Shown here: piece by piece, positions 7,704 to 43,444 of the stretch
Position numbering within the stretch: the first letter of the stretch is position 1
Layout: each line of letters starts with the position of its first letter
Assembly (NCBI GenBank): GCA_902826565.1
Contig: CADEFF010000003.1
Location: forward strand, 42,588 to 106,587
Source: an uncultured Rhodospirillaceae bacterium
GTDB lineage: Bacteria > Pseudomonadota > Alphaproteobacteria > Dongiales > Dongiaceae
Length of the DNA: 64,000 nucleotides
Direction of reading: 5' to 3'
Program-made: the position numbers and the translations under genes
The notes under the pieces: generated by a model
The model's database searches: none
What the model was told of the DNA's origin: nothing
The model's input: only the letters and a program-made list of their open reading frames with translations

Positions 7704-8414
7704 CTAGCGAACGGCGCCTACGCCGCCCCGCTTGATGACATCGAGCGCCGCCGCGCAGGCACGATCCACATGATCCTTGCAAGCGAGCTCTGCGGCATCG
7801 GGATCGCGCCGGACGATCGCCGCCACGATCCGCTGCATCTCGACCAGGCTGCCCGGGGCGCGGCCCGGCTGCGACATCGAGGTCGCGCGCAGGAAGACGA
7901 CGCGGGCATTGAGCGAGCGGATCAGGTCGCGGATCACCGCGTTGCCGCAGCCTTCGAGCAGGACCTCATAGAGCCGGTTGGTCTCGGCGACGATCTCCCG
8001 ACGATCCATGCCGGAAAAGGCCTCGCCGAGGCGTGCCAGCGCCGCTTCCAGCGCCTTTACCTGCGGGTCGGTCGCCCGCTCGGCGAAGAGCCGCCCGGCG
8101 AGACCTTCGAGCGCCCGCCGCACCTCGTAGATCTGCAGCGCCTCCTCGGCCGTGACGGTGGCGACGATCGGGCCCTTGTTCGGCAGATTGCGGACGAGCC
8201 CCTCCGATTCGAGGTGGCGCAGCGCCTCGCGGACGCTGGTACGGCTGACGCCCGTAAGCTCGCAGATTTCACGCTCGATCAGCCGGTCGCCCGGCTTGAA
8301 CCGGAATTCCAGGATCGCATTGCGCAGGATATCGAGCACCTGCTGGCGGAGCGTGACCGAGGCGCGCGCTACCCGAAGCGACGGCAGCGCCTCGCCCTCC
8401 TCCCTATCCGCCAT
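7704..8414 (-). CDS. GntR/FadR-family transcriptional regulator
   Basis: Track ORF 7704..8723, trimmed to the ATG at 8414 (MADREEG), preceded by GAGGTGG. Winged-HTH block ICELTGVSRTSVREALRHLESEGLV, with a FadR-type (FCD) C-terminal domain. Confidence 0.85.
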   Translation of the reverse strand: MADREEGEALPSLRVARASVTLRQQVLDILRNAILEFRFKPGDRLIEREICELTGVSRTSVREALRHLESEGLVRNLPNKGPIVATVTAEEALQIYEVRRALEGLAGRLFAERATDPQVKALEAALARLGEAFSGMDRREIVAETNRLYEVLLEGCGNAVIRDLIRSLNARVVFLRATSMSQPGRAPGSLVEMQRIVAAIVRRDPDAAELACKDHVDRACAAALDVIKRGGVGAVR

Positions 8415-23745: not shown

Positions 23746-24657
23746 TCATTCGCCGGAGGAACCGTCCGCGGCCGCGGCGCGGACGGATCCCGTTTCGTCG
23801 ATTGCGGGTTCTTCGAGCAGCCGTCGCCAGTCGGATTGCGGGGCGAAGCCCAGCACCGTGCGCGCATGGGCGATGTCCCACATGCTGGCGAAAGGATTGC
23901 TGCGATAGATCTCCGGCTTGCGGATTTCGGGCAGCGAGCCATAGACGCGCGTCAGGAACTCCAGCGTCGGCTCGGGCGCGAAGGTGTCCGCCGCGCTCAG
24001 GTAGAAGGCATCGAAGCCCGGGCGGTCGAGCAGCAGGGATTTCCGGACGCCCTGCACGACGTCCTTGGCCTCGACATAGGACCAGAGGTCGGGATCGTCG
24101 ATCCCCCGCACCCGACGCACATAATCCTGCATCCAGGGCATGACGATGAGGGTCGGCCGCAGGACGACCACCTCCATGCCGCGCCGCGCATAGCTGCGGC
24201 CCAGCGTCTCGAGGACCTGCTTGCTGAGCCCGTAGGCCTCGATCGAGGCGAGCGGATGGTTTTCGTCGATCGGCAGATAATCGGGCCGCATGCGGGGCAC
24301 GCGCCGCACCGTGATGACGCCGGTCGTGGTCTCGCTCGAGAGCAGCACGACCCGCCGGATGCCAAGGCGATGCGCCGCCTCCAGCAGGTTCCAGGTGCCC
24401 TGGACATTGACGCTGAAGATGCGCTCCTCGGAATGTTCGAGCGTCAGGAGCGCCGCCAGATGGACGGCCGCATCATGCCCCTTGAGGGCATCCAGCACCG
24501 CTTCGAAGCTCAGGATGTCGAGATAGCGCGAACGTATGCTGCGCGGGCCCGGCCGGAGATCGAGCGCCGTCACCTCGGCATGGCGCATCAGGTCGCCGAC
24601 CACGAGCTTGCCGAGCGCGCCATTGCCCCCCGTCACCGCGACGTTGCCGAAGCGCAT
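23746..24657 (-). CDS. NAD-dependent epimerase/dehydratase (extended SDR)
   Basis: 303 aa. N-terminal Rossmann motif VAVTGGNGALG, and YGLSK (YxxxK) in the catalytic region. Confidence 0.8.
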   Translation of the reverse strand: MRFGNVAVTGGNGALGKLVVGDLMRHAEVTALDLRPGPRSIRSRYLDILSFEAVLDALKGHDAAVHLAALLTLEHSEERIFSVNVQGTWNLLEAAHRLGIRRVVLLSSETTTGVITVRRVPRMRPDYLPIDENHPLASIEAYGLSKQVLETLGRSYARRGMEVVVLRPTLIVMPWMQDYVRRVRGIDDPDLWSYVEAKDVVQGVRKSLLLDRPGFDAFYLSAADTFAPEPTLEFLTRVYGSLPEIRKPEIYRSNPFASMWDIAHARTVLGFAPQSDWRRLLEEPAIDETGSVRAAAADGSSGE

Positions 24658-25458: not shown

Positions 25459-25608
25459 CTAGGCTGGAGTCGAGATTCCGCTCGCATTTTTCGAAGCAGC
25501 GGCGACCTGCGAGAGCCGCTCGCGCCTGATCAGGACCGGCGTCTTGTAAGGGCGGCGCCCGGTCGAGGGTGCGAGCGTAAGGTTGCGGGAGGGATCAATC
25601 TCGATCAT
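25459..25608 (-). CDS. RiPP precursor-like peptide P1 (49 aa), variant copy with Ala at -2
   Basis: Own translation: MIEIDPSRNLTLAPSTGRRPYKTPVLIRRERLSQVAA|ASKNASGISTPA. GGAG lies 5 nt upstream of the ATG. It shares the Y-x2-P-x-L-x2-[KR]RERLS block with three neighbours. The track ORF 25459..25653 is a 5'-extended form. Confidence 0.65.
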   Translation of the reverse strand: MIEIDPSRNLTLAPSTGRRPYKTPVLIRRERLSQVAAASKNASGISTPA

Positions 25609-25678
25609 GACAGCTCCAGAGCTGAGGGTCTGCGGAGATGCTTCCGCCGGCACTTGCCTTACTTTGCGGAAACCGGAA

Positions 25679-25855
25679 TCAGATCGGATTCTGTCCGTCG
25701 GCCGAAACGCCGCTCGGGCCCTGCGACGTGGCTGTCACCTGCGAGAGCCTTTCGCGGCGGCTCAGCGTCGGCGCCTTGTAGGCGCGTCGCGTGGAGGCGG
25801 CAGGCCCGTTGCCCTTGTCGGTATCATTGCGCCGGGGTGACGTCTCTTCGCTCAT
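25679..25855 (-). CDS. RiPP precursor-like peptide P2 (58 aa)
   Basis: Not in the track (under 60 aa). Own translation: MSEETSPRRNDTDKGNGPAASTRRAYKAPTLSRRERLSQVTA|TSQGPSGVSADGQNPI. GGGAG lies 6 nt upstream of the ATG. Y(-17), P(-14), L(-12), T(-2) spacing. Confidence 0.75.
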   Translation of the reverse strand: MSEETSPRRNDTDKGNGPAASTRRAYKAPTLSRRERLSQVTATSQGPSGVSADGQNPI

Positions 25856-25923
25856 CGCAAGCTCCCTATCCGCACCGCGCCATCAGGTTCGCGGAGATAT
25901 CCTCTGAAGATTCTGACCTCGGG

Positions 25924-26103
25924 TTATCCCGGCGCGCTGTCGGTCGAAACCCCGCTCGCATTCTTGGAAGAGGCGGTCACCTCGGAAAGTCGTTCGCGCT
26001 TCACCAGGATGGGCGCAGCATATGACCGGCTCTTGCCGCTTAAAACCGGCGCTGCATCGGTGCCGAGCTCGCGCCGGCCGCCGTTCCTGTCATTCCGCAC
26101 CAT
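25924..26103 (-). CDS. RiPP precursor-like peptide P3 (59 aa)
   Basis: Not in the track. Verified codon by codon: MVRNDRNGGRRELGTDAAPVLSGKSRSYAAPILVKRERLSEVTA|SSKNASGVSTDSAPG. A purine-rich GGGGAA lies upstream of the ATG. Same leader spacing as P2. Confidence 0.75.
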   Translation of the reverse strand: MVRNDRNGGRRELGTDAAPVLSGKSRSYAAPILVKRERLSEVTASSKNASGVSTDSAPG

Positions 26104-26139
26104 TGTGGTTCCCCAATCTTCCCGGTTGCCCGGTCGCTC

Positions 26140-26301
26140 TTACGTGATCGCCACGCCGCTGGCAGCCTTCGAATCTTCGGCGGTAATCGCCGAAAGCCGC
26201 TCGCGCTTCGTGATGGACGGTGCCCGATAGGGCCGCCGCGCACCGGTCCTTGCGGATGCTACGCCTGTCTCGGACCGTTCGGAATTCTCCGGCTTTCTCA
26301 T
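26140..26301 (-). CDS. RiPP precursor-like peptide P4 (53 aa)
   Basis: C-terminal part of track ORF 26140..26562. The internal ATG at 26301 is preceded by GAGGGGAA. Sequence: MRKPENSERSETGVASARTGARRPYRAPSITKRERLSAITA|EDSKAASGVAIT. Same leader spacing, with Ile at -12. Confidence 0.7.
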   Translation of the reverse strand: MRKPENSERSETGVASARTGARRPYRAPSITKRERLSAITAEDSKAASGVAIT

Positions 26302-26680
26302 CGATTTCCCCTCGTAGTTCGGACCACCGCGCCATGCGCGACGGCGCCCTGCGCTCGATCTCTTCGGGTCTGGTATCCCCCCGCATCCTGCCCGCCGGAT
26401 TGTCGAAACCGCCACACCGCGCCCAAGCGCGCCGAGCCCGGTTCCGCATCCCGGACGGAGATGAAACCTAACATCCCTGCGAAGGCCATGGCCAGACCGC
26501 ATTTCCCGGTTGGGCCGACGATTCGGCTGGCATCGGGTCGACATTATCGACATGGAATCCAAGGGTTCCGGCGGCGCGGACTATCAATGATTGCCGGGCT
26601 GCGGCAGAGTGGGCCCCTATCGTGCCACGGCCCCCCGAGAGTCCGGCCGAACCTGTTCCCCCACCGTCCGATTGCCTGCC
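26302..26680. promoter_or_regulatory. Divergent intergenic region between the precursor array and the maturation operon (presumed bidirectional promoter region)
   Basis: 379 nt with no convincing ORF, flanked by divergently oriented starts at 26301 (-) and 26681 (+). No specific promoter boxes were identified. Confidence 0.4.
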
Positions 26681-28603
26681 ATGGACCTGGTCACGATCCT
26701 CACGCCGACGCTGCCGGCCCTGGCCTGGGTCGCCGAGCGGCGCCGGGGCAGCCGCGAGGTGCAACTGCGCCATGGGACCGCCGTCGAGCTGGATCCCGAG
26801 GGGGCGATCGCCGGCGCCTGGGCCGGAAGCTTCGCGAAACGGGACATGACCGGCGCCGCCACCTCCATCGGCACGGCGCTGCGAAGGAACGGCGATCGAC
26901 TGCTGGCGCTGGTCGGCACCGCGACCGCCTCCACGATGCAGATTCTCTGGACTCCCAACCGCCTCGTGGTCTCCAACAGCTTTGCCCTAGCCCTCGCCGC
27001 GGGCGATGACCGGCTGGAGCCCGGCTACGCCTTCTATCCCCAAGATCTCTACACCTTCACGCTCGGCGCAAATCGCTATCGACAAACCATCCCGACGCAG
27101 CGCGGCCGGCTCGGAGTCTACTATGCCTCGGTCGAGATCGACGCCAGCGGCGAGCTCCGCATGATGCCGCCGCCCTCGCCGCCCCGCTTCACCGACTATC
27201 GGAGCTATTGCGCGATGCTGGAAGGCGAGATGGCGGCGGTCTTCGCCAATGCCGCCGATCCGGCGCGGCATCGCCACTACCGTCCCGTCGTGAGCATCTC
27301 GGCGGGTTATGATTCGCCCGCAGCCGCCGTGCTGGCGAAACGTAACGGGTGCAGCGATGCCATCACCTTTCCGCAGCCGATCGATCGGCGCGACCGGCCG
27401 GAGGATGACGGCACCGCGATCGCGCGGCAACTCGGCCTCTCCGTCGTCTCGCGCAACACCTTCGACTACCGGCGTCGCGCCGATCAGCCCGAGATCGAAT
27501 TCCTCGCGGCGAGCTTCGGCGGCGGGCAGGTCTACCTCGCCGGCACCGAGGCGCTGCTCTCCGGACGGCTCGTGGTGTCGGGCGGCGGCGGCGACACGCT
27601 CTGGGACATCGCGCTCGGGCAACGCCGCCGGCCACGTTTCCCGATGATGCTCGGCGGCTACAGCGCCATCGATTTTTTTCTCCGGCTTCCGGCGCTGGAG
27701 CTCGCGGTGCCGGCGATCGCGTCGGCGCGATGGGCGGAGATCGCCGCGCTTTCGCGCTCCGGGGCGATGCGGTCCTGGTCCATCGGCGGAACCTACGATC
27801 GACCGATCCCCCGCCGCCTTCTCGAGGAAGCCGGCGTCGCACGAGGCAGCTTCGCCGACCGCAAGCGGCAGGTGACGCCGGTCTATGACAGCATCACGCG
27901 CCGCGCGCCTTCGATCGACAGCTTCCTCTCGCCCGCCACGAGAAAGGTCTTCGCCGACTGGTTCTCCGCCCAGACGCCGCTTCGCGGAGGCGCCGCGCGA
28001 CGACACAAGCTCGCGGTCGACAGCTACGGGCGCATCGTCTGGTCCGGCAAGCTTGCCCGGCTTGCGCGCCGCCTCGGCGGAAGCTGGCCGCCCTTCCCGG
28101 CAAAGGTCTGGCATCTGCGCATGCCGATGCGCGAAAACGCCTTCCTCTTCAACTGGGCTGTCGAGCGCCAGCGCACGCGCTATAAGGACGCGCTCGCGGG
28201 CAAGAATGACGATATGCCGATGCCCGCTCCCGAAGCCGGCCTGAAGGAACCGCCGATGGCCCCGTCCGACGCCGACGATACCGCGCCCTTGCCGACGCAG
28301 TTCGCGCCGGTCGATCGCCGCGCCGTGCTCCGGCTCTCGCCCAAGGTCACGCTGCGGCGTCTCGGCGAGGATCAGGGCGCCGTGGTGCTTCGGCTGGCCG
28401 ACGGGCAGCTCTATACCTGCAACGATACGACCGTCGATTTCCTCGAGGCGGTCGACGGCGAACGCGATCTGGCGGCGATCATCGCGCGGCTCGAATGCGT
28501 CTATGATGCTTCGCCCACGCGGCTGCGGATGGATCTCGTCGCGTTGGCCGAACAGCTTCTGGCCGAAGGCCTGATTCGGATCGAGGATGCAACGGCGCGC
28601 TGA
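26681..28603 (+). CDS. Asparagine-synthetase/PP-loop-like enzyme (lasso-cyclase-like) fused to a C-terminal PqqD-type RiPP recognition element
   Basis: Track ORF 26591..28603, trimmed to the ATG at 26681 (MDLVTIL). Central PP-loop-like motif VVSISAGYDSPAAAVLA (compare SGGxDS). The last ~95 aa (VLRLSPKVTLRRLGEDQGAVVLRLADGQLYTCNDTTVDFLEAVDGERDLAAIIARLECVYDASPTRLRMDLVALAEQLLAEGLI) look like PqqD/B1. No stop codon separates the two parts. Confidence 0.6.
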   Translation: MDLVTILTPTLPALAWVAERRRGSREVQLRHGTAVELDPEGAIAGAWAGSFAKRDMTGAATSIGTALRRNGDRLLALVGTATASTMQILWTPNRLVVSNSFALALAAGDDRLEPGYAFYPQDLYTFTLGANRYRQTIPTQRGRLGVYYASVEIDASGELRMMPPPSPPRFTDYRSYCAMLEGEMAAVFANAADPARHRHYRPVVSISAGYDSPAAAVLAKRNGCSDAITFPQPIDRRDRPEDDGTAIARQLGLSVVSRNTFDYRRRADQPEIEFLAASFGGGQVYLAGTEALLSGRLVVSGGGGDTLWDIALGQRRRPRFPMMLGGYSAIDFFLRLPALELAVPAIASARWAEIAALSRSGAMRSWSIGGTYDRPIPRRLLEEAGVARGSFADRKRQVTPVYDSITRRAPSIDSFLSPATRKVFADWFSAQTPLRGGAARRHKLAVDSYGRIVWSGKLARLARRLGGSWPPFPAKVWHLRMPMRENAFLFNWAVERQRTRYKDALAGKNDDMPMPAPEAGLKEPPMAPSDADDTAPLPTQFAPVDRRAVLRLSPKVTLRRLGEDQGAVVLRLADGQLYTCNDTTVDFLEAVDGERDLAAIIARLECVYDASPTRLRMDLVALAEQLLAEGLIRIEDATAR

Positions 28604-29030
28604 ACGCCTGTCCGATCTCCGCTTCCGTTGCCATCTCTGGCTGGCGGCGCGATGGCTGACGGTACGCGCCAAAGGTCGGCCGATCGAAACCCTGCTGCAG
28701 GCGGCGACGCCCGTCCCCGGCTTCGAACCCTATCGCGGCCTTTCGGCCGAACGCATCGTGGAGGCGGTCCGGCGCACGCTCGCCCGCCCCTGGCGCATGC
28801 GCGGCCGGCGCTGCCTCCGCGAGGGGCTGCTCGCCTTTCGGTTCCTTCGCCTCGCCGGCTATCCGGCCGTGCTGCATTTCGCCGTCGCGTCCCCCTCGCC
28901 GACCGATCGCATGCGCGCCCATTGCTGGGTGACGCTGGAGGGAAGGCTCATTCACGAATCGCCGCGCGAGGGAATGGTGCCGCTCCTCGAGTGGGACGGC
29001 GAGGCGCGACCCGCGACGCAGAATGGCTGA
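28587..29030 (+). CDS. Lasso peptide biosynthesis B2 protein (transglutaminase-like Cys protease, leader peptidase)
   Basis: 147 aa. Family-typical block RCLREGLLAFRFLRLAGYPAVLHFAV...RAHCWVTLEGRLI containing the Cys and His of the catalytic triad. The start overlaps the upstream gene by 17 nt. Confidence 0.8.
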   Translation: MQRRAERLSDLRFRCHLWLAARWLTVRAKGRPIETLLQAATPVPGFEPYRGLSAERIVEAVRRTLARPWRMRGRRCLREGLLAFRFLRLAGYPAVLHFAVASPSPTDRMRAHCWVTLEGRLIHESPREGMVPLLEWDGEARPATQNG

Positions 29031-30018
29031 CCGCCGCATGGCGGCGCGCCACTACGACCTCAACGGCGTCACGCTGGCGGTGGCGGCGGATCGCCCGGAA
29101 GCGGCCGGTTTCCTCGATTTCGTCCTGTCGCCGCTGGCGATCGACCCCACCGAGAAACCCGATTGCCGGATCGCGATCGAGACCCGCGGCACCCTGCCGC
29201 CGGCGGCTCGAGGCCTGCTCCAGTTCGAGGGAGCGCTTCCGGAATCGCTGCCGGCGCAGCTCGTTCGGGACGGCGACCTGAGGACGCTCGACGCGCCCGG
29301 GCATTATCAGGCCGAGAGCCTGCGCGGATCGGATTTCGTGCGCGTTCTCGTCGCGCCGGGAAGCGACCGCTGGCTCACCGGAACGCTGGCGTTCTGGCTG
29401 CTCGACGAGCTGCTGGTCGGGAAAGGCCGCATCTTCCTGCATGCCGCCTGCCTGGCGCGGCCCGCGGGCGATGCGATCCTCATCTTCGCCGCGAGCGGCA
29501 CGGGCAAGACGACGACGGCGCTGGCCCTCGCACGCAACGGCTACGGGTTGATGGGCGACGACGTGGCGCTGCTGGAATTCCGCGATGGCCGACCGTGGGT
29601 CTGGGGGCTGCCGCGCCCGATCAACCTGCATCGCCGAACCGCGGCCATGCTGTCCTGGATCGATCCCATCCTGCGGCCATGGCGCGGCGAGGAACAATCC
29701 GTGCCGTTCGACAAGCTCGCCACCTGCATCGACCGTGCGGCGGCAAAGGCCCGGCCCTGCGGCGCCATGGTCATGCTGCAGCCGCCGAACCCTGAGGGCC
29801 ACCGTGCGGCGCCGATGGCAAGGACGGAGGCGATGGTGCAGGCCGCGGCGGACAACCTCCGCGTCGCGCCGGGCGGGCTCGACGAAGACGGCGAGCTCGC
29901 CTTCGACGCGCTGGCGCGGCTGATCGCGGCGGTGCCCGTGCTGCAGCTCGAAGTCGGACCCGATCCCGATTCCCTGCGGCCCGATATCCTGGAGAGCGCC
30001 GGCGTTACCGCGCGATGA
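29023..30018 (+). CDS. HPr-kinase-related (HprK-like) serine kinase of the lasso-peptide kinase type
   Basis: 331 aa. P-loop plus downstream acidic motif IFAASGTGKTTTALALARNGYGLMGDDVALL, as in the HprK C-terminal domain. The ATG overlaps the B2 stop (ATGGCTGA); an alternative ATG lies at 29038. Confidence 0.7.
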   Translation: MADRRMAARHYDLNGVTLAVAADRPEAAGFLDFVLSPLAIDPTEKPDCRIAIETRGTLPPAARGLLQFEGALPESLPAQLVRDGDLRTLDAPGHYQAESLRGSDFVRVLVAPGSDRWLTGTLAFWLLDELLVGKGRIFLHAACLARPAGDAILIFAASGTGKTTTALALARNGYGLMGDDVALLEFRDGRPWVWGLPRPINLHRRTAAMLSWIDPILRPWRGEEQSVPFDKLATCIDRAAAKARPCGAMVMLQPPNPEGHRAAPMARTEAMVQAAADNLRVAPGGLDEDGELAFDALARLIAAVPVLQLEVGPDPDSLRPDILESAGVTAR

Positions 30019-30982
30019 GCGGGCGTGTGGTGAGGCGGCGATAGAACTGCGCGATCCTTCGCCGCTTGCCGTCGCCCGGCAGCCGGCGCCGGAGCCGCAC
30101 CCGGGCATCCGCAAGATCGAGTTCGATCCGTCGCCAGCCGATCCGGGGCGGCGCGCCAGTCGTGGGTCCGAGCCGCTGCACCAGATCCATGATGCGGTAG
30201 TCGCGTCCGGCGATTCGCATGACGAGTTGCCGCAACTGCCCGACCGTGCCGCAGAGCCAGGCGACCCGATCGGCCGTTTCCGCCGGTGTCAGCCGGAAGG
30301 CTGCCGTCGTCGGACGAGCGAGGGTCGCCGCCGCCTCGTCCTGCGGCACCGCCCCGATCTCGCCGCGCAGATAGCGCGGGACAGCCTGCACGGCGAGGGT
30401 CGCGGCCGCCTCGGCCAGCGACAGCTCCCACCGGCGGACATCGCCACCCGATTCGAGCGGCACCGGGACGGCGGCGATGACCGGCCCCTTGTCCATACCC
30501 GCCGTGATCGCATGGAGCGTGACGCCGCCATAGCGATCGGCCGTGCCATCCAGCAGCATGGCCATCAAGGGATAGGGGCCGCGGAACCGCGGCAGCAGCG
30601 CCGGATGCAGGTTCAGCACCGGCATGGCGAGGCTATCCAGGAACGATCGCGGCAGGAGGCGCGGAAAATGCACGCTGAGGACGAGATCGGGCCGCAGCGC
30701 CGCGGCGCGCGCGGCTGCCTGGTGCCAATCGGCCGCCGCGGACAGGACATGCGGCGCGATGCGACCTCGCCTGATCGCCGCCGAGACGGACCATTGCGGC
30801 GTGCATATCCCCGTATGGCGATCGCGGCGCCAGTCGGACGGACCCGATGCATCGACCGTCCAGAACTCGAGGATTTCGTGGCCCGCCGCAAGCCAGGCAT
30901 GGGCAACGAGCGCGGGCGTCGGCCCGGTCGCGCCGAGGAAGAGAGCGCGATATCGGCGGAAAGGCTGTTTCGCCTCCCTCAC
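30005..30982 (-). CDS. Methionyl-tRNA-formyltransferase-like (Fmt/ArnA-N-type) formyltransferase
   Basis: Track ORF 30005..31486, trimmed to the GTG at 30982, which overlaps the upstream stop as GTGA. The product is 325 aa. Formyl_trans_N motif VLNLHPALLPRFRGPYP plus AGMDKGPVIA. The 3' end overlaps the kinase 3' end by 14 nt (convergent). Confidence 0.7.
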   Translation of the reverse strand: MREAKQPFRRYRALFLGATGPTPALVAHAWLAAGHEILEFWTVDASGPSDWRRDRHTGICTPQWSVSAAIRRGRIAPHVLSAAADWHQAAARAAALRPDLVLSVHFPRLLPRSFLDSLAMPVLNLHPALLPRFRGPYPLMAMLLDGTADRYGGVTLHAITAGMDKGPVIAAVPVPLESGGDVRRWELSLAEAAATLAVQAVPRYLRGEIGAVPQDEAAATLARPTTAAFRLTPAETADRVAWLCGTVGQLRQLVMRIAGRDYRIMDLVQRLGPTTGAPPRIGWRRIELDLADARVRLRRRLPGDGKRRRIAQFYRRLTTRPLIAR

Positions 30983-32073
30983 GAGAGCCGGACCAGCAAT
31001 TCGCGATAGAGCTGCCGGCGCCAGGCGTGGCGCGAGCGCTGCGAATTGTGGGCAGTGAGGATCGGCGACCGTCCGAAAACCCGGGCGAGGCCGCGCGTCC
31101 GCCGATCGCGTACGACGGCGGCCGCGAGCGCGCGCATCGCCGGATCGCCCGTGAGCCTGCCGGCGATGACGAGCGCGCTGCGCAAGGCGAGCCCGCCGCC
31201 GGTTTCCGCCGCCAGCCGTTCGAGCGCGTCGCGATCGATAGGGCCGGCGGCGCCTCGCGCCGCCTGCACCATGTCGAAGATCTGCTGCAGCCGGTCGAAG
31301 CCGTGGCCGGCCGCCGCATGGATCGCCGCGATATAGAGCAGGGCCCCTGCGGTCGGCCTTCCGTCCGCCATGCCGAACCGCTCGAGCTGCGCAAAATCGA
31401 GCGACACCCGGCGGCGCAGCTTCGGCGAGTTTACCAGATCCCAATGCAGCTCGACCGGTGAGGTGCCGAGCACCGGGTGCGCCCATTTCTCCTCGGCATA
31501 GTGCCCTGCATGCCGTCCCGAGGTCTGCGGCACATGGCGGTAGCCGAGCTCGGTCAGCACGGCCCGCGCGGCGGGAAATTCCTCGTCCGGCAGCATGAGG
31601 TCGATGTCGTCGAAGGGCCGGAGCGCCGGATCCGGATAAAGCCGGTCCGCAAAGCTCGAGCCCTTGAGGACCGCCGCCGACACGCCCGTCGCCGCGAGCC
31701 TTTCCAGCAACGCCTGCTGCATCGCGCGAAGCAGCTCCGCCCGCCCGACGAGATGCGCCACGCCGAAATCGAGCCGTTCCAGCATCGCCGCCACGGCGGC
31801 CTCGGGATTGCTTGCCCGCAAGACCGCCGCGAGCCCGCGCTCGGCCGTCACCCGCCGGATGTTGCGTGCGATCGCCGGCGACACACGGTGCCGGTCGCCT
31901 TCGACCGCAAGCCGTTCGAGATCCTCGTCATCGAGCGGTGCCGCCGGCGCGGAACCGTGCGGCGCCGGATCGCCGAGCCAGAGCAGCCAGGCATGGAAGC
32001 GGTCGGGCAAGGGGCAAAAATCCTGCAATCCCAAGACAGCGCCAGCATAGGGGCCGGAAGGCGGATCGGCCAT
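30979..32073 (-). CDS. Nucleotidyltransferase family protein (PF14907/NTP_transf_5-like)
   Basis: 364 aa. VLKGSSFADRLYPDPALRPFDDIDLMLP and VELHWDL match the pol-beta-like nucleotidyltransferase family that frequently accompanies lasso clusters. Confidence 0.7.
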   Translation of the reverse strand: MADPPSGPYAGAVLGLQDFCPLPDRFHAWLLWLGDPAPHGSAPAAPLDDEDLERLAVEGDRHRVSPAIARNIRRVTAERGLAAVLRASNPEAAVAAMLERLDFGVAHLVGRAELLRAMQQALLERLAATGVSAAVLKGSSFADRLYPDPALRPFDDIDLMLPDEEFPAARAVLTELGYRHVPQTSGRHAGHYAEEKWAHPVLGTSPVELHWDLVNSPKLRRRVSLDFAQLERFGMADGRPTAGALLYIAAIHAAAGHGFDRLQQIFDMVQAARGAAGPIDRDALERLAAETGGGLALRSALVIAGRLTGDPAMRALAAAVVRDRRTRGLARVFGRSPILTAHNSQRSRHAWRRQLYRELLVRLS

Positions 32074-37963: not shown

Positions 37964-38619
37964 ACGGGCGGGCGCCGGCAGGGCCTGAGCGACCGCCGCG
38001 ACGAGCGGCGATCGACACCCGTCAGCCTGGCTCCAGCAGCCTGGTCGGCGCGCCGATAATGTCCGCTTCGCGACAGAGCTTGCCCCAGCGGATGCGATTG
38101 ATCCGGGGGAAACGCAAGGCACACATCAGCATCGCATCGATGAGGTAAGGGATCGCGCTCTATTTGAACCAAATGTTCTTCGGTCGCCGGCGACACAGGG
38201 ACTGTCCTTCCGCTTCAGCAGGATCCCTTCGACACCGGCTTCGCGGTTCCCGAGCCGTAGCCGTGCACGCTCCGCCCAGCTCGCGAAAGGAACGAGCGGA
38301 ACGGCGTACCAAGGGCCGAGTTCCTCGCAGAACCGAAGCCGGCCAGCGCTGAAGATCGTGGAAGTTCAATAGACGCGACTTGGATTGGATCCTGCTCACC
38401 CCTGCACCAAACTGCGCACCGCGGGCGGCGGCCAAGGAGCAGCTAGGCACAATGCCGAGCTTGTCGCTAGTATTGGGTGATCGCGGATGTGCTTCGGCGG
38501 TTCTGCCGCTCGCCCTCGTTTTGCGACCTGCTGGATGTCGAAGAAGACGATTCGGTCGCGATTTGAGCAGCCGAAGTGCATCTTGAAGATCTTCGATGTA
38601 GTTACCTTCGGTCCCCTTC

Positions 38620-39294
38620 TTGCGCCGTACGACGAAATCGCCTGCCAAGCTCGACGTGGGCTCCCCTTCGCGGCGCTCTCCAAAGCGCGGCTTGCGGGAG
38701 CGTAAGCGGCTAGAGCGTCGCCACCAGATTCTGGAAGCGGCCGCAGAGATATTCCATCGTCGCAGCTTCGACGGAACGCGCATCGAGCAGATTGCCGAGG
38801 AGGCCGACGTCTCTGTCGGCACGGTCTATAACTACTTTCCCACCAAGGACGCACTACTGCTCGGTCTTGCTGATCATTATCGCTCACGCACGCCCGAACT
38901 GATCTCGGCTCTGGTCGAAAGCCCACCTTCCGATCCGGTGAAGGCGTTCGTGCAGTTCTATTCGATCATGACGCGGGAGAGCATGCGCTATCTCGACAAG
39001 CCGCTGTGGCGCCATGTTCATGCAGCCACGACCGTCAGCGGATGGAACCAGTATGGCAGCCAACGCTGGCAGCATGAAGAGGGCCTGATCGAGTTCCAAT
39101 GCGCCCTGATCCGCGCTTTACAGCGGCTGGGAAGCGTCTCAAGCACGATTGACATTCGACCGCTCGCCGAGGTGATCCATGCGAGCGCATTCTTCTGGTG
39201 GCAGAGATTCCTCGTGCAGGAACCGATGACTCGGTCCGACTTCATGGCAAAGCTGAAGCGCGACCTGGCATTCATTCTCGGTCGCTCGCGCTAG
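38620..39294 (+). CDS. TetR-family transcriptional regulator
   Basis: HTH block ILEAAAEIFHRRSFDGTRIEQIAEEADVSVGTVYNYFPTKDAL. The start is uncertain: the track uses the TTG at 38620, and in-frame GTG 38656 and TTG 38692 are alternatives. Confidence 0.8.
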   Translation: MRRTTKSPAKLDVGSPSRRSPKRGLRERKRLERRHQILEAAAEIFHRRSFDGTRIEQIAEEADVSVGTVYNYFPTKDALLLGLADHYRSRTPELISALVESPPSDPVKAFVQFYSIMTRESMRYLDKPLWRHVHAATTVSGWNQYGSQRWQHEEGLIEFQCALIRALQRLGSVSSTIDIRPLAEVIHASAFFWWQRFLVQEPMTRSDFMAKLKRDLAFILGRSR

Positions 39295-39314
39295 TTGCGG
39301 CGCGCCGCGTGTTA

Positions 39315-40034
39315 CTAGCCCGAGGTTTCCATTGACCAGCTATGCAGGTCATCGAGCTCGGCGACGTCGAAGTTCGGGGAGAGACAGAAACGCTTCACCT
39401 TCTCCTCGGCTGCCAGCACGCCGGCAGTAATGCGCAGCAACTCTTCCAGGTCGATTTCGGCAGGAATGATGAGCGCGCCATGTTCGTCGGCATGAACGAG
39501 ATCGCCGGGCCGGACGACCAGGCCGCCGACCTTGACCGGGGTGCCCATCTCCACGAATCGCACATTGGCATGGCCGACCGTCGGGCCGCCAGCGAACAGG
39601 CCGAATCCGATCGCACCCATCTCGGGCAGATCTCGAACGCTCCCATTCGTGATGGCGGCAACGCAACCGAGCGCCTTGAAGATCGTCGCCGATACGTCGC
39701 CCCAAGCGCAGCCGCGTCCCGGTGCCTGATCGAGATCCTGCACCACTGCGATGCTGGGTCGCGGCGCGATGGCCACACTTTCCCACACAGCCCGCCATGA
39801 AAGCACCGCCTCGCCCGGCGCCTCGGGCAGTTCGCCCACAATCTTCCCGGTCCAAGCATAGCCGACAAAGACCCCGAGCGACGGCAGCATGCAGCGGACA
39901 GTATGGTCGGTATAGCCCTCGCTCTTCGGCCGCAGGTTGAAGCGCTCTATCGAGTCATAGACGGTCGGCGTCCGATAGGCGCGCAGCCGCCCCAGGACGT
40001 CGCTTCCCTGTCCAGCTGAATGTGCCTTGTTCAT
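39315..40034 (-). CDS. RraA-family protein (4-hydroxy-4-methyl-2-oxoglutarate aldolase/oxaloacetate decarboxylase-like)
   Basis: Track ORF 39315..40064. I prefer the ATG at 40034 (MNKAHSAG). RraA-like core AWGDVSATIFKALGCVAAITNGSVRD and VRPGDLVHADEHGALIIP. Confidence 0.7.
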   Translation of the reverse strand: MNKAHSAGQGSDVLGRLRAYRTPTVYDSIERFNLRPKSEGYTDHTVRCMLPSLGVFVGYAWTGKIVGELPEAPGEAVLSWRAVWESVAIAPRPSIAVVQDLDQAPGRGCAWGDVSATIFKALGCVAAITNGSVRDLPEMGAIGFGLFAGGPTVGHANVRFVEMGTPVKVGGLVVRPGDLVHADEHGALIIPAEIDLEELLRITAGVLAAEEKVKRFCLSPNFDVAELDDLHSWSMETSG

Positions 40035-40078
40035 GAGCTTGACTCGCTTCAGTGGAAACGACAATGGAGGTGCCGCGG

Positions 40079-41188
40079 CTAGATCTTCAGATCCTGAAGA
40101 TGCTGCCGATAGCGGATCTGGAAATCCTGCATGACCTTTTCGCTGCCAAGGAAGATCGGGCCTTCCTCGAAGCGTCCGCCCATGATGTTCCTCGCAACGC
40201 CCTCGCAGACGACGCGATCCTCCCCATAGACGAGCTTGTGATACCAGTCGGCCGCTTCCTCCACCTCGGGCTCGCCGATCGTCGGCGGAGCAAAGAAATC
40301 GGTACGAACCCGGATCCGATTGGCGTTGACGATTTCAAGGATTCGAATGTTCGACACCCGGCCCTGCATGGCTTGGAGCGTCCAGTTGGGCCATACCCCA
40401 CATGCCATCCATGCCGGCATATTGGCGTGATTCTCGCGAGAGTGCGAAATGTGGAATGCGAAGGTGTCGTAGCTCTCGTTAACGTAGTCGTCGGGATCGG
40501 TCTTGTGGGTGGTGCCCATAGTTGGATGGACCAGCCGGCAGTGGTAGCAATCCGCCGTGTTGTCCATGAAGGTCTTCCAGTTGCAGGCCTGTTCCCAGAC
40601 GAGCGTCTTGCGATAGCTCATCTTGGCGATGCCGATCTGATTTTCCTCAGCGATGCGGATGAGTGTCGCGAACTCCTCCTCGAAGGCCGGGCCGTCAAAT
40701 TGGAGATTTGCAAAGCCGAGATCCCCCCAAAGGCCGACTCGAATGGGTAGCAAACCGTAGTTCGCAGGATCGAAGGCGGCCTCCCTCTCGGAGCGAGGCG
40801 CCTTGATCAGCGAACCATCCTGACGATAGGTCCAGCCGTGATAGCGGCACATGAAGACGGTGCAATTGCCCGAGTCTTTAGCGACAGGATGACCGCGATG
40901 CCGGCACATATTGACGAAGCCACGCAGCGTGCCGTCCTTGTCGCGGATGACGACGATCGGCACTTCGGCGACCGTCGCGGTCAGGTAGTCGCCTGGATTG
41001 ACGAGGCCGTTGACCGGACCGATCGGCTGCCATCGACGCGCCATGACGTATTTCTGCTCGAAACGAGAAATTTCCTCATCCCCGTACCAATAACCAGGGA
41101 ACGACACCTTCCTTTCGATGGCAGAGTCGATCTCCGCCAGCATTTGCACCCGAAGCGCGCGGTCATCATGCATGAGAGCCTCCAGCAT
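40079..41188 (-). CDS. Rieske [2Fe-2S] ring-hydroxylating oxygenase, alpha subunit (alpha-only type)
   Basis: 369 aa. Rieske motif CRHRGHPV..(15)..CRYHGWTY. The catalytic domain has NTADCYHCRLVH. Confidence 0.85.
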   Translation of the reverse strand: MLEALMHDDRALRVQMLAEIDSAIERKVSFPGYWYGDEEISRFEQKYVMARRWQPIGPVNGLVNPGDYLTATVAEVPIVVIRDKDGTLRGFVNMCRHRGHPVAKDSGNCTVFMCRYHGWTYRQDGSLIKAPRSEREAAFDPANYGLLPIRVGLWGDLGFANLQFDGPAFEEEFATLIRIAEENQIGIAKMSYRKTLVWEQACNWKTFMDNTADCYHCRLVHPTMGTTHKTDPDDYVNESYDTFAFHISHSRENHANMPAWMACGVWPNWTLQAMQGRVSNIRILEIVNANRIRVRTDFFAPPTIGEPEVEEAADWYHKLVYGEDRVVCEGVARNIMGGRFEEGPIFLGSEKVMQDFQIRYRQHLQDLKI

Positions 41189-41617
41189 TCAGAGCTCCGG
41201 TTCGGTTACCGTCTGCCTCACCAAGATACACTATGGCCTTCGAGCCCGCGGTTACCGTCATCCGATCTATCGGCATTCCGTCTGCCCTCGCCGCGGATCG
41301 CTGTCCGCTCGGTAAGGGAGACGAGTGTCGGTCAAAGTCGAGGGCAACAGATAGTCTCATTGGCGTGAACGGCAGTCCGGTATGCCTTTCTGCGGCCGAC
41401 CGCGGAATCTCAGATATCCGCGACAACCAAAATATTGTGCTAGACTATAATATTGAGTTTTGTTCAATAAAAGCGGTAAAACCGATCGACCTATGCGGAT
41501 CGCATGCGGCTGCTAGAACTCTCTGCATCGCGTTCTCAACTACCGAGACGTCAGGGGCTCATAGGCGGCCGAACGAAGTATAGGCAATCAGCGATCGGGG
41601 AAATCTGGGAGGTAACA

Positions 41618-42616
41618 ATGAAAAAGCTTCTATTTGCATTACTGGCTGTCGGCGTCGCGTTAGCGGCGAGACCGGCCTGGTCGGCGGATAAGGTGACCTT
41701 TGCGCTCAACTGGAACGTGCCTTATTCCGGCTGGGCCGGCTTCTACGTCGCTCAGGACAAGGGATACTTTGCGGCCGAGGGTCTTGACGTGGAGTTCCTC
41801 TTGGTGAAGGGGTCAAATCCTGCTAATCAGGCCATCGCCGCCGGCAACGCGCAGCTCGGCGTATCAACTGCGAGTTCGGTGATGGTGGCAGCGAGTCAAG
41901 GTCTGCCCCTCGTCGCAGTCTCGGCCTATATGCAGTCCAATCCAGAAGGCGTGATCGCCCGCAAGGATCGCGGCATCGAGAACATCACTGACTTCGCCGG
42001 CAAGAAGGTCGGCTACAACGTCTCGAACCCGACGGTCTACCTGTTCGAGGCAAAGCTGAAGCGCGCCGGCGTCAATAAGGACGACATTACTTGGGTGACG
42101 GTGCAACCTGAAGCGATGGTGCCGTTACTCCTTTCCGGCGAGATCGACGCCGCGATGGGATACTGGGATTGGGAAGCGATCAACGTCGAGCAGCAGGGCC
42201 TGGGCACCAACGTGTTCGTGATGAGCGACGACAAGGTGCAGATCTATGGCGGCATCGTCTCGGCGAATGCCGATTGGGCAAAGGATCATGGCGACGTAAT
42301 TCGCCGCTTCCTGCGCGCTTCGGTGAAGGGCTGGATCGATGCGGCGGCAGATCTCGACGCTACCTTGGCCGTCATGATGAAGGCCAATCCCGAGGAGGAC
42401 GAGGCCTTCATGCGCCAGGCGCTCGCGATCTCCACCAAGCTCATCGGGAGTTCCGATGCCGACACGCATGGGTTCGGATGGATGGACAAGGCCGATTGGC
42501 AGGGCCTCCAGGAAGCCCTCCTGCAGGGCAAGGTGATCGAGAAGGAAGTCGACCTGGACACACTTTTCACCAACGACTACATGCCCGATAACGCCACGGA
42601 CTGGAAATCTCAGTGA
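41618..42616 (+). CDS. ABC transporter substrate-binding protein (NMT1/THI5-like, NitT/TauT family)
   Basis: Track ORF 41504..42616, trimmed to the ATG at 41618, preceded by GGGAGG. Sec signal MKKLLFALLAVGVALAARPAWSA, followed by KVTFALNWNVPYSGWAGFYVAQDKGYF. Confidence 0.85.
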   Translation: MKKLLFALLAVGVALAARPAWSADKVTFALNWNVPYSGWAGFYVAQDKGYFAAEGLDVEFLLVKGSNPANQAIAAGNAQLGVSTASSVMVAASQGLPLVAVSAYMQSNPEGVIARKDRGIENITDFAGKKVGYNVSNPTVYLFEAKLKRAGVNKDDITWVTVQPEAMVPLLLSGEIDAAMGYWDWEAINVEQQGLGTNVFVMSDDKVQIYGGIVSANADWAKDHGDVIRRFLRASVKGWIDAAADLDATLAVMMKANPEEDEAFMRQALAISTKLIGSSDADTHGFGWMDKADWQGLQEALLQGKVIEKEVDLDTLFTNDYMPDNATDWKSQ

Positions 42617-42631
42617 ACAGCCGACCTTTTC

Positions 42632-43444
42632 ATGGCAGAGCGTGACAACGGCAGCGGCAGCGAAGGGAGGCCCCTGGTTTCCCTTCGCAACGTTGCCAAG
42701 ACTTACGAAGTCGATGGCGGCTCAACCGTGGCCGCGCTCCAGAGCGTCTCGATCGATATTGCGGACAAGCAGTTCGTCAGTCTGATCGGCCCCAGCGGTT
42801 GCGGCAAATCGACGATCATGTCGATAGTCGCCGGATTGCTCGAACCTAGCACCGGCGAGGTGCTGATCGACGGCCATCCTCCGGCACGAGCGCGCGAGGC
42901 ACACGAGCTCGGGATCGTATTCCAGCAGCCGGTTCTGCTGCCCTGGCGGACGATTAGGGCGAACTGCCGCCTCCTGCTCGAGGTGGCGGGCCTTCGGAGC
43001 GCCGAAACCGAGACGCGAATCCAAGAGCTGCTCGAACTTGTCGGGCTCCAGGATTTCGCCGACCTGCATCCGAACCAGCTTTCGGGCGGCATGCGCCAGC
43101 GCGCCGCAATTGCACGGGCACTTTGCCTCGATCCGCTGCTTCTGCTGATGGACGAACCCTTCGCGGCGCTCGACGAGTTCACCCGGCTGCAACTCAACAA
43201 GGAGCTATTGCGCGTCTGGGCGCAGCGCCGCAAGACGATCATCTTCGTGACGCACAACATTGCCGAGGCGGTGTTCCTCTCCGACCGTGTTATTGCGATG
43301 AGCCCTCGCCCTGGTTGCGTGATTGAGGATTTGGCGATTCCGCTACCTCGCCCGCGGCATCCAGATGTGCGTTACACCAAGGACTATACCGACTGCGTCG
43401 TGCATCTCCAGCGGCTGCTGGAGAGCGCGATTCCGGTGGGTTGA
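42632..43444 (+). CDS. ABC transporter ATP-binding protein (NitT/TauT family)
   Basis: Walker A GPSGCGKST, signature LSGGMRQRAAIARAL, Walker B LLMDEP. Confidence 0.9.
   Translation: MAERDNGSGSEGRPLVSLRNVAKTYEVDGGSTVAALQSVSIDIADKQFVSLIGPSGCGKSTIMSIVAGLLEPSTGEVLIDGHPPARAREAHELGIVFQQPVLLPWRTIRANCRLLLEVAGLRSAETETRIQELLELVGLQDFADLHPNQLSGGMRQRAAIARALCLDPLLLLMDEPFAALDEFTRLQLNKELLRVWAQRRKTIIFVTHNIAEAVFLSDRVIAMSPRPGCVIEDLAIPLPRPRHPDVRYTKDYTDCVVHLQRLLESAIPVG

Follow-up and report, generated by a model that had tools for sequence, protein, structure and literature searches.

Positions 25459–32073 of the window (the whole 64-kb stretch of DNA analysed) encode four tandem precursor peptides, an enzyme (X) fused to a PqqD-type RRE, a B2 protease, an HprK-type kinase (K), an Fmt-like formyltransferase (Fmt), and a PF14907 nucleotidyltransferase (NT). 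On balance, we favor the view that this is a functional RiPP cluster of an undescribed family, which descends from lasso machinery and makes no lasso product. Lasso ancestry is indicated by the leader spacing, a B2 protein that scores above the lasso cutoff, the superposition of the RRE on lasso B1 proteins, and homology to a genuine phospho-lasso cluster. The cores are incapable of forming the lasso ring, and the cluster therefore probably yields a modified peptide of a kind not yet described; we found no account of this family in the published literature. The first-pass annotation had proposed a new maturation logic built on lasso leader-recognition and cleavage hardware, and both the conserved related loci and the non-lasso cores support this proposal.

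Organization of the locus and its precursor peptides

Every gene previously placed within this interval was found at its reported position. The precursor genes (minus strand) and the enzyme operon (plus strand) diverge from an intergenic region (26302–26680) that presumably contains their promoters; a sigma-70 consensus scan found no promoter in this region, and no promoter or terminator was detected at the locus. The predicted overlaps of gene ends were measured at 17 nt for X and B2 and at 8 nt for B2 and K (ATGGCTGA), and the predicted coupling of NT and Fmt proved to be a GTGA shared between the NT stop and the GTG start of Fmt. The 3′ ends of the K and Fmt genes also overlap, by 14 nt. 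One flank encodes a flavodoxin, an NAD-dependent epimerase, and a solute-binding protein, and the other GFA, RecQ, and a HerA-like protein; inspection of these flanking genes bore out the claim that no ABC exporter or isopeptidase gene is adjacent.

The four precursor ORFs were confirmed on the minus strand (25459–25653, 25679–25855, 25924–26103, and 26140–26562); the lengths given here rest on their likely true starts. A1 (25459–25608; 49 aa) comprises the leader MIEIDPSRNLTLAPSTGRRPYKTPVLIRRERLSQVAA and the core ASKNASGISTPA, which lacks any acidic residue, and is identical to a protein found in public assemblies (P0069). The leader of A2 (25679–25855; 58 aa) ends in YKAPTLSRRERLSQVTA and is followed by the core TSQGPSGVSADGQNPI; this gene carries the shared leader motif and belongs to the DNA-level repeat family D1/D2. 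A3 (25924–26103; 59 aa; YAAPILVKRERLSEVTA followed by the core SSKNASGVSTDSAPG) carries the same motif and has an ortholog in a related locus, L005. A4 (26140–26301; 53 aa; ATG at 26301) has a leader ending in YRAPSITKRERLSAITA and the core EDSKAASGVAIT; compared with its L005 ortholog, the C-terminal half of the leader and the core are conserved and the N-terminus is variable. The four genes are paralogous at the DNA level, with copies spaced 207–242 nt apart, and a GGAG-like ribosome-binding site lies upstream of each start. All share the motif Y-x-x-P-x-[LI]-x-[KR]-R-E-R-L-S-x-[VI]-[TA]-A, followed by 12–16 variable residues. None matched a curated family (Pfam and NCBIfam profiles), and a search of the locus for a hidden canonical lasso precursor showed that none exists.

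The leader motif returned 60 matches in related loci, and its spacing (Y0-P3-L5-T/A15-x16) is that of canonical lasso precursors such as P0085. About 20 independent loci, drawn from different taxa, show this leader and core pattern, always beside the same enzymes and in up to eight copies. Homologous loci retain the small ORFs, whose leaders are alike and whose cores are likewise of the non-lasso kind. We compared 59 distinct cores of 6–16 aa (median 11 residues). The lasso ring rule, i.e., Gly, Ala, Ser, or Cys at residue 1 together with Asp or Glu at positions 7–9, was satisfied by four of the 59 cores and by none of the four in the window, in agreement with the earlier claim that a 7–9-membered macrolactam cannot form. 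Likewise, the C-terminal Ser reported missing is absent from all four window cores and present in only 4/59 across the family. No constraint is visible at residue 1, which may be A, E, D, G, Q, V, I, T, S, K, L, or N; Lys is missing from several cores.

The cores do contain a conserved Ser/Thr-Gly anchor that the first-pass annotation had not noticed. An [ST][GA] pair occurs at core position 4–8 in 47/59 cores, against 17.5 ± 3.4 in shuffles. The anchor is usually accompanied by a carboxylate (Asp/Glu or the C-terminus) 4–6 residues downstream: 46 of the 50 short cores end 3–6 residues past the anchor, and all nine long cores have Asp or Glu at anchor +4 to +6 (null 4.2 ± 1.4; P ~4e-4, uncorrected for ancestry), with Asp recurring at core position 10–12. 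Acidic residues are present in 30/36 cores associated with X and 2/12 without it (Fisher 6e-5), a correlation uncorrected for shared ancestry and with an X-less sample of four loci. The six X-associated cores that have no side-chain carboxylate are A1 and five others.

Enzymes of the locus and their distribution

X (26681–28195, plus strand; the ORF, 26591/26681–28603, includes the RRE) combines an N-terminal Ntn-like domain lacking the Cys nucleophile with a PP-loop synthetase domain (motif S-A-G-Y-D-S). The N-terminal ~520 aa of the fusion protein had no Pfam, NCBIfam, or PDB-sequence match. Its AF2 model (pLDDT 88) matched beta-lactam synthetase (1mbz/1jgt, E 3e-11), carbapenam synthetase, AsnB, and TsnB9 in Foldseek, with values of 3e-11 to 1e-5 for the three synthetase types. 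The PP-loop is kept among relatives, and G209-Y210-D211, K395, and other residues are invariant. The Asn-synthetase-like description of X therefore holds at the level of fold only, as judged from the model; we rejected X as a PF00733 lasso cyclase, as it has no PF00733 match and aligns to a genuine cyclase with an hhalign probability of 8.5%. The 64-kb window as a whole contains no PF00733-type gene.

The fused RRE, as had been recognized, is a PqqD-type domain at the C-terminus of the X ORF (28325–28600, plus strand; PF05402, E 1.5e-9) and is the equivalent of lasso B1. It is joined to X through a low-confidence linker, and its model superposes on lasso B1 proteins (Foldseek TM 0.78 for 6jx3_B and 0.76 for TbiB1, 5v1v). 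B2 (28587–29030, plus strand) is a transglutaminase-like Cys protease and predicted leader peptidase, an assignment strengthened by PF13471 (1.2e-13) and by NF033537, lasso_biosyn_B2 (59.5 bits, cutoff 33); Cys76 and His112 are invariant, and the third position of the triad shows some variation.

The assignment of K (29023–30018, plus strand) as an HPr-kinase-like enzyme was not confirmed by profiles (sub-threshold on TIGR04352, 43 bits with a cutoff of 200, E 2.5e-11, and on PF07475, E 1.4e-3) and stands on its fold and residues: the AF2 model (pLDDT 95.8) has the PEPCK/HprK-superfamily P-loop fold (Foldseek to PEPCK, E 1.6e-10), and H140, K162, D179, and D180 are invariant. The kinase family numbers 309 representatives at E ≤ 1e-30. 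This His-Lys-Asp-Asp set is reported to be catalytic in lasso kinases (PMC9266682). NT (30979–32073, minus strand) is a PsmN-like member of PF14907 (NTP_transf_5, 7.5e-32), as proposed, with invariant K137-G138 and D156-x-D158; the equivalents of this D-x-D in PsmN, D134 and D136, are essential (PMC6993621). The additional formyltransferase is also real (PF00551, Formyl_trans_N, 8.8e-19). Its gene is 30005–30982 (minus strand; 325 aa, with the GTG start in GTGA), which replaces a 493-aa ORF; the Fmt/ArnA-like product scored below cutoff on TIGR00460 (4e-23), scored also on ArnA and sugar N-formyltransferase models, and has invariant N124, H126, and D164. Judged by the retained motifs of K, NT, X (PP-loop), and Fmt (N-H-D), the enzymes look active.

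Relatives sharing at least 41% identity with X form one clade (16/155 in a neighbour-joining tree), and on most contigs of sufficient length this clade co-occurs with PqqD, B2, K, and NT (L001, L003, L005, L087, L089, L091, L092, and L096) and with precursors bearing the same leader; the exceptions, L009, L094, and L098, have X but none of B1, B2, K, and NT on its contig. X and the RRE are fused in the window, L005, L087, and L096, whereas the RRE is a separate gene in L001, L003, L091, and L092. Partners such as TauD, GNAT, and AMP-binding enzymes are variable. Four sampled loci (L169–L172) contain B1, B2, kinase, nucleotidyltransferase, and the same kind of precursors without any AsnB-like gene, and so X and Fmt look like accessories to a common set of PqqD, B2, kinase, and PF14907 proteins. 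The B2, K, and NT of the phospho-lasso cluster L173 are homologous at 30–33% local identity (30% for NT).

Proposed pathway and competing explanations

From the domains, catalytic residues, gene co-occurrence, and leader and core conservation, we infer the following chemical steps and their order. The RRE, fused to X here, would bind the lasso-like leader (Y-x-x-P-x-L), and B2 would cleave past the T/A-x dipeptide to release cores of 12–16 residues. Class-defining chemistry would then take place on the lone conserved core feature, the Ser/Thr-Gly/Ala at position 4–8. K may phosphorylate this anchor and NT elaborate the phosphate, on the precedent of paeninodin and pseudomycoidin, yet at an internal residue; the anchor as kinase target is a guess, because the C-terminal Ser on which characterised lasso kinases act is absent here. 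In this subclade, the glutaminase-less X could use ATP to adenylate a core carboxylate, either the Asp about five residues after the anchor or the C-terminus, yielding an amide or ester as a non-lasso ring or cap. AsnB-like enzymes that modify RiPP carboxylates have precedents in PesC and TsrC (PMC13060819). Finally, Fmt may add a formyl group to a free amine, the simplest candidate being the N-terminus that B2 exposes.

A linear phospho-glycosylated or phospho-nucleotidylated peptide, whose attached sugar or phosphate moiety, and not the peptide itself, is what X, Fmt, and the variable partners modify, is an unlikely though reasoned alternative. On this reading, the substrates would be a uronic-acid carboxylate for amidation by X and an amino sugar for formylation by Fmt, as for their relatives in polysaccharide pathways. 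X might indeed act on a sugar, given that its nearest large family (hundreds of matches, 27–38% identity) lies in polysaccharide clusters, with flippases, Wzy, glycosyltransferases, and canonical AsnB genes as neighbors; the scores of Fmt on sugar-modifying models, the documented PsmN-dependent addition of hexose to phosphoserine (PMC6993621), the GT2 and FemAB-like gene beside the precursors and X in L009, and the dispensability of X and Fmt in some family members point the same way. However, the RiPP-associated X proteins are a clade apart, X is covalently joined to a leader-binding RRE, and acidic core residues track its presence. Moreover, the window locus itself contains no glycosyltransferase or sugar-nucleotide biosynthesis gene, and the only nearby sugar-nucleotide candidate, the epimerase (23746–24657), is not conserved in L005. 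The RRE fusion, the acid-core correlation, and the adjacency to precursors (direct in L009 and L098, though other genes are missing from those contigs) make it most likely that X acts on these peptides rather than on sugar.

We consider it improbable that the product is a true, very divergent lasso, for which X would join the new N-terminus to an available Asp/Glu (e.g., Asp11) or to the C-terminus and so close a ring that is unusually large or head-to-tail. The order X-B1-B2 mirrors C-B1-B2, the recurrent Asp at position 10–12 offers a partner, and X is fused to B1 and shares the cyclase superfamily fold without the glutaminase Cys, as in cyclases and beta-lactam synthetase. Against this, X has no sequence relation to real cyclases, core residue 1 is unconstrained, six X-associated cores lack an acidic residue, cores of 9–12 residues are too short for threading, related clusters work without an AsnB-like enzyme, and the presence of a formyltransferase, which would compete for the N-terminal amine, sits badly with this reading. 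That the small ORFs are chance products of GC-rich DNA, where spurious ORFs abound, or remnants of a decayed locus with no peptide product is highly implausible despite the lack of a detected promoter or terminator, an adjacent exporter, or a curated precursor family, as the pattern is repeated beside the same enzymes in about 20 independent loci, conservation covers the C-terminal half of the leader and the core but not the drifting leader N-terminus, every ORF has a ribosome-binding site, and all enzymes keep their catalytic residues.

Comparison with known systems

The undescribed RiPP family that we favor is closest to the phosphorylated and phosphoglycosylated lasso clusters (paeninodin, pseudomycoidin, and ThcoK/SyanK). 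These likewise have split B1 (PqqD RRE) and B2 proteins, an HprK-type kinase with His-Lys-Asp-Asp, a PF14907 nucleotidyltransferase with D-x-D, and a YxxPxL leader with a penultimate Thr. In contrast, the window family has no PF00733 cyclase, mostly lacks Asp/Glu at core positions 7–9, has cores of 6–16 residues, and is missing the C-terminal Ser that is the sole known target of their kinases; K and NT are present in every sampled B1/B2 cluster here and are optional tailoring enzymes there, and the window has a formyltransferase and no adjacent ABC exporter. Canonical lasso clusters (B or B1/B2 plus C) share the same leader-recognition and cleavage logic and proteins, and their cyclases, like X, have an AsnB-superfamily fold that has lost the glutaminase Cys; yet X is unrelated to them in sequence and profile and is missing from part of the family, and the class-defining macrolactam is impossible in 55/59 cores. 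The TIGRFAMs cassette of TIGR04352 and its partners similarly pairs an HprK-like kinase, HprK-related kinase A, with a PqqD-family peptide chaperone, but the kinases of the window, L170, and L172 are not members (27–29 bits for the latter two, cutoff 200).

X itself resembles TsrC (amidation), PesC (nitrile synthetase), and the beta-lactam and carbapenam synthetases in its two-domain AsnB fold and PP-loop, which implies ATP-dependent carboxylate adenylation; as in the TsrC and PesC systems, the peptide substrate would be encoded next door. PesC and TsrC are glutamine-dependent and recognised by PF00733, whereas X lacks both the N-terminal Cys and any match in Pfam. The cores here offer no conserved C-terminal residue for recognition, and X, unlike TsrC and PesC, is fused to an RRE.

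Gene organization and conserved enzymes of the locus

Inspection of positions 25459–32073 confirmed exactly the genes claimed in the first-pass annotation, in a window with a GC content of approximately 68%. Four precursor genes lie in tandem on the minus strand, i.e., A1 (25459–25608; 49 aa), A2 (25679–25855; 58 aa), A3 (25924–26103; 59 aa), and A4 (26140–26301; 53 aa), each called from the most plausible start with a GGAG-like ribosome-binding site. The four copies are paralogous at the DNA level, are spaced 207–242 nt apart, and have no matches in Pfam or NCBIfam. Across a gap of 380 nt lies a divergent operon on the plus strand whose three genes overlap: the gene for enzyme X and its fused RRE domain (26681–28603) overlaps by 17 nt with that of the leader protease B2 (28587–29030), which overlaps by 8 nt with that of the kinase K (29023–30018). 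Convergent with this operon is a minus-strand pair encoding the nucleotidyltransferase NT (30979–32073) and the formyltransferase Fmt (30005–30982), with the GTG start of the latter overlapping the TGA stop of the former. No promoter or terminator was detected in a scan of the precursor region, tRNA and Rfam scans were empty, and the 64-kb window contains no PF00733-type gene and, besides X, no AsnB-like gene. A separate region of the window (38000–44000) has a GC content of 0.575–0.62, compared to about 0.67–0.70 elsewhere, and encodes the alpha subunit of a Rieske ring-hydroxylating oxygenase and an RraA-like aldolase, along with ABC transporter components and an NMT1-type binding protein. 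This stretch, which is unrelated to the peptide locus, may have been acquired as a catabolic island.

Profile and structural searches bore out the proposed RRE and leader protease. The C-terminal PqqD domain of the X protein (PF05402, E = 1.5e-9) superposes on lasso B1-leader complexes (6jx3_B, 5v1v; Foldseek TM 0.76–0.78) and is predicted to be a lasso B1 equivalent that binds the leader. B2 matches PF13471 (1.2e-13) and exceeds the cutoff of the lasso B2 model NF033537 (59.5 bits vs. 33); its Cys76 and His112 are invariant, with the third triad residue variable. The description of K as HPr-kinase-like held for its fold and catalytic residues but not for its profile matches, which were below threshold for HprK-type models. 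Membership of TIGR04352 (HprK-related kinase A) was rejected, given a score of 43.2 bits against a curated cutoff of 200 with only profile positions 95–184 matching. The K model (pLDDT 95.8) adopts a PEPCK/HprK-superfamily fold and residues His140, Lys162, Asp179, and Asp180 are invariant across 41 sequences; this His-Lys-Asp-Asp set is reported to be catalytic for lasso-tailoring kinases (PMC9266682).

The remaining two enzymes were also correctly placed. NT is a PF14907 nucleotidyltransferase (E = 7.5e-32) with the conserved motif G-S...D156-x-D158, in which both Asp residues are invariant and equivalent to the essential D134 and D136 of PsmN (PMC6993621). Fmt contains a formyltransferase N-domain (PF00551, 8.8e-19) with an invariant catalytic set of Asn124, His126, and Asp164, and scores under the equivalog cutoffs of the Fmt, ArnA, and PurN models. 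It is found in the window, in the related loci L005, L087, L001/L002, and L101, and also in L170, a locus that lacks X. Comparison by eye of Fmt presence with core residue 1 or Lys content revealed no pattern, and several cores from clusters containing Fmt have no Lys.

Enzyme X and its relatives

The first ~520 residues of X have no match in Pfam or NCBIfam, including PF00733 and PF13537, and a 36-sequence X profile found nothing relevant among PDB sequences; the sole hit, to MenD (E = 0.045), was judged spurious. Since sequence and profile searches were uninformative, structure prediction was needed. An AlphaFold2 model built on the 36-sequence alignment (pLDDT 88) matched beta-lactam synthetase in Foldseek (1mbz/1jgt; E = 3e-11) over ~580 columns and both domains, with further matches to carbapenam synthetase, human and E. 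coli asparagine synthetases, and TsnB9. The modeled structure thereby places X in the AsnB superfamily, with its two-domain fold. X also contains a PP-loop (S-A-G-Y-D-S) in which G209, Y210, and D211 are invariant. Hence, its earlier description as an Asn-synthetase/PP-loop-like enzyme stands for fold and PP-loop, but not for the PF00733 and PF13537 families. Class II amidotransferases hydrolyze glutamine with an N-terminal Cys nucleophile; beta-lactam synthetase and lasso cyclases adenylate carboxylates without glutamine. As Cys is missing from position 2 of the N-terminal consensus of X (MxxxLxxxRxxxLPALAW), X is predicted to perform glutamine-independent carboxylate adenylation like beta-lactam synthetase.

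X belongs to a wider family of AsnB-fold proteins of ~510 aa, with a PP-loop and no Pfam or NCBIfam model, that spans many phyla (361 matches among species-representative genomes and 329 among metagenomes, sharing 27–38% identity). The genes of this family lie in polysaccharide clusters that also encode flippases, Wzy, glycosyltransferases and, in many cases, a canonical AsnB; examples include L006 (2838–4358), L007 (72–1601), and most of L010–L086 and L102–L166. An iterative search of >140 such loci detected no PqqD, B2, K, or NT, except for one K-like match in L112. Certain distant homologues are considerably longer. P0052, with 975 aa, includes a fatty-acid hydroxylase domain (PF04116), and similar fusions may explain ~2.8-kb matches in L032, L044, and L066 (Dongia sedimenti, Pisciglobus, and Desemzia).

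In a collection of 5.8 billion proteins, X has 63 detectable relatives. Relatives sharing at least 41% identity form one clade in a neighbor-joining tree (16 of 155 sequences), here termed the RiPP clade, from alphaproteobacterial MAGs and metagenomes representing Rhodospirillaceae/Dongiaceae (92% identical and syntenic), Hyphomicrobiales, and Xanthobacteraceae. Among the contigs of this clade long enough to show neighbors, PqqD, B2, K, and PF14907 genes flank X in L001, L003, L005, L087, L089, L091, L092, and L096, the exceptions being L009, L094, and L098. Gene order differs among these loci, the X-PqqD fusion occurs in four loci, and some partners vary, with a TauD dioxygenase in place of Fmt in L003 and GNATs in L001. 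In the latter locus, from a Xanthobacteraceae MAG, B2 and K are fused into one protein of 479 aa (6605–8044), a fusion that speaks for joint action of the two in a complex. An NRPS-like region with AMP-binding, condensation, and GNAT genes adjoins this locus.

A precursor family with lasso-type leaders and short cores

The precursors of the related loci carry a leader of the form Y-x-x-P-x-[LI]-x-[KR]-[RKG]-x-x-L-x-x-[IVL]-[TAC]-x, in which the Y0-P3-L5-T15 spacing is the same as in the canonical lasso leader YxxPxLx3Gx5Tx (e.g., in the precursor P0085). Position −2 is Thr in three of the four window precursors and Ala in the fourth; given the shared spacing, cleavage by B2 after T/A-x is the natural inference. 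Homologous loci retain small ORFs of this type, as expected from the earlier reading: a regular expression for the leader detects precursors in RiPP-clade loci, and a profile of the precursors recovers 23 small proteins, among them, from public assemblies, a peptide identical to A1. The profile also retrieves, weakly, two canonical lasso precursors through a common RRPYxxPxL segment.

We defined 59 distinct cores as the residues after T/A-x of the leader. These are 6–16 residues long (median 11) and are unconstrained at residue 1, which may be A, E, D, G, Q, V, I, T, S, K, L, or N. The lasso ring rule, i.e., a small residue 1 with Asp/Glu at positions 7–9, is matched by four of the 59 family cores and none of the four window cores, in line with the claim that the latter cannot form a 7–9-membered macrolactam; core A1 (ASKNASGISTPA) lacks any acidic residue. 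A C-terminal Ser is equally rare (4/59), and its reported absence from the window cores holds, as their final residues are A, I, G, and T. Scanning 24.8–32.4 kb for a hidden canonical lasso precursor yielded none, with three frame artefacts that lacked a leader.

The conserved feature is a Ser/Thr-Gly/Ala anchor ([ST][GA]) at core position 4–8, which was observed in 47 of the cores compared to 17.5 ± 3.4 in shuffles; the remaining 12 still have Ser/Thr at position 4–8. In exploratory counts that ignore kinship, a carboxylate tends to follow the anchor: the C-terminus lies 3–6 residues past it in 46 of 50 short cores, and Asp/Glu is found at +4 to +6 in all nine of the longer ones (null 4.2 ± 1.4; P ~4e-4). 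Acidic residues occur in 30 of 36 cores associated with X, compared to two of 12 from loci without it (Fisher 6e-5), a difference confounded by phylogeny.

Distant K homologues (28–37% identity) identify loci that combine PqqD, B2, K, and NT with the same kind of precursors and no AsnB-like gene (L169–L172). The B2 proteins of these loci also score above the lasso B2 cutoff. L170 encodes eight tandem precursors of ~30 aa (e.g., MKKTYTKAAAAKRQPLAAVTA|QVVSGKNPA) with Fmt and no AsnB-like enzyme, and the L172 precursor is YRKPVLEKHHKLTDVTE|GNVIVVTGRPT. In L170 (11180–12313), the precursors have near-identical leaders and cores of 7–9 residues (QVVSGKNPA, QVLSGPANQ, and others), and are sited between NT and Fmt, with an MFS transporter after Fmt. 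Conversely, X adjoins one to three precursors on contigs with no RRE, B2, K, or NT (L009, 4260–6566; L098, 8001–9600); in L009, a GT2 glycosyltransferase and a FemAB-like gene lie on the far side of the precursors from X. Across loci with and without X, the common element is thus the precursor family. Judged by gene content, this family apparently relies on a B1-B2-K-NT module and, within one subclade, also on X, such that X and Fmt would be accessories rather than the core of the system. Two tandem genes with the same leader, each encoding 31 aa, are also present in Mesorhizobium sp. NZP2298 (CP033365; L167, 10001–10096 and 10174–10269). The first, MKKTYVKPALVKRDKLSVVTANCTPSHPCIG, is named "putative RiPP precursor" by NCBI, and no PqqD, B2, kinase, NT, or X was found within 10 kb of this precursor (P0084), so any modifying genes would lie elsewhere.

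Proposed pathway and comparison with known systems

We infer the most likely chemistry and order of steps from what the sequences show, namely the domain identities, the preserved catalytic residues, the co-occurrence of the genes, and the conserved sequence features. The RRE would bind the leader, after which K would phosphorylate the anchor Ser/Thr and NT would elaborate the phosphate. Following removal of the leader by B2, X would adenylate a carboxylate, that of the Asp around +5 or that of the C-terminus, giving an amide or ester, and Fmt would transfer a formyl group to a free amine, in the simplest case that of the newly exposed N-terminus. Two alternatives remain. X and Fmt may instead tailor an appended sugar, like their relatives in polysaccharide pathways. 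X may otherwise be a highly divergent lasso cyclase that makes unusual rings; a RiPP-clade X profile aligned to a genuine lasso cyclase with an hhalign probability of 8.5%, which shows no kinship at the sequence level, the likeness to AsnB being one of fold only. That the locus is inert is contradicted by its conservation.

A further reading, which we consider rather unlikely, is that the locus represents a new RiPP class in which K and NT activate the internal Ser/Thr as a phospho- or NDP-ester that is then captured to form a new linkage, with X recruited from polysaccharide pathways. Candidate linkages would be a ring closed onto the N-terminus or another residue through a phosphoramidate or phosphodiester bond or, if X takes part, a lactone joining Ser/Thr to the carboxylate 4–6 residues downstream.

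In this locus the lasso leader apparatus (B1/B2) has parted from the lasso cyclase and is paired instead with a kinase and a nucleotidyltransferase; the presumed substrates are very short cores in which an internal Ser/Thr-Gly is the sole constant. What sets one RiPP class apart from another is its signature modification. If confirmed, the system would constitute a new class, with an upper size bound of approximately 300 kinase-family representatives at 50% identity (309 at E ≤ 1e-30 in a 50%-clustered library), and a sister family missed by lasso-style genome mining that requires a PF00733 cyclase. It would also provide the first function for an unannotated AsnB-fold family widespread in polysaccharide loci and, possibly, a case of enzymatic N-formylation in a RiPP. 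The compact 6.6-kb cluster is directly testable by heterologous expression and should interest natural-product biochemists. The first-pass interpretation is supported overall, with three refinements: the fold-level likeness of X, the accessory role of X and Fmt, and the Ser/Thr-Gly anchor. Full-text literature searches, covering only a minority of subscription journals, turned up nothing on B1/B2/K/NT clusters that lack a cyclase, on the X family, or on a formyltransferase in this setting.

Among known systems, a genuine phospho-lasso cluster (L173, 3797–12194) encodes PqqD, an ABC exporter, B2, a PF00733 cyclase, the precursor GGGGSNADKEGPQQ, K, and NT. Local identity between the window proteins and the B2, K, and NT of this cluster is 30–33%, such that common ancestry of the leader-handling and K/NT parts is well supported. 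The core of this precursor has no C-terminal Ser, though the cluster is a canonical lasso cluster with kinase and PF14907; the kinase target in true lasso clusters may not always be a C-terminal Ser. Known lasso-tailoring kinases phosphorylate the C-terminal Ser of the precursor, and PsmN attaches a hexose to the resulting phosphate (PMC8498205, PMC9266682, PMC6993621). The window shares the HprK-like His-Lys-Asp-Asp kinase of the paeninodin type, but its cores lack the C-terminal Ser site, and it shares with the phosphoglycosylated pseudomycoidin type a PF14907 NT with a metal-binding D-x-D. The AsnB-like enzymes TsrC and PesC turn RiPP C-terminal carboxylates into amides or nitriles (PMC13060819); both are glutamine-dependent PF00733 members, whereas X has no PF00733 match and is predicted to be glutamine-independent. 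With lasso clusters in general, the locus shares a PqqD-type RRE, B2, and a YxxPxL leader. However, the PF00733 cyclase and a ring-forming core were both absent in the tests run, so it is not a lasso cluster, and it is best filed as a putative RiPP biosynthesis locus derived from lasso hardware.
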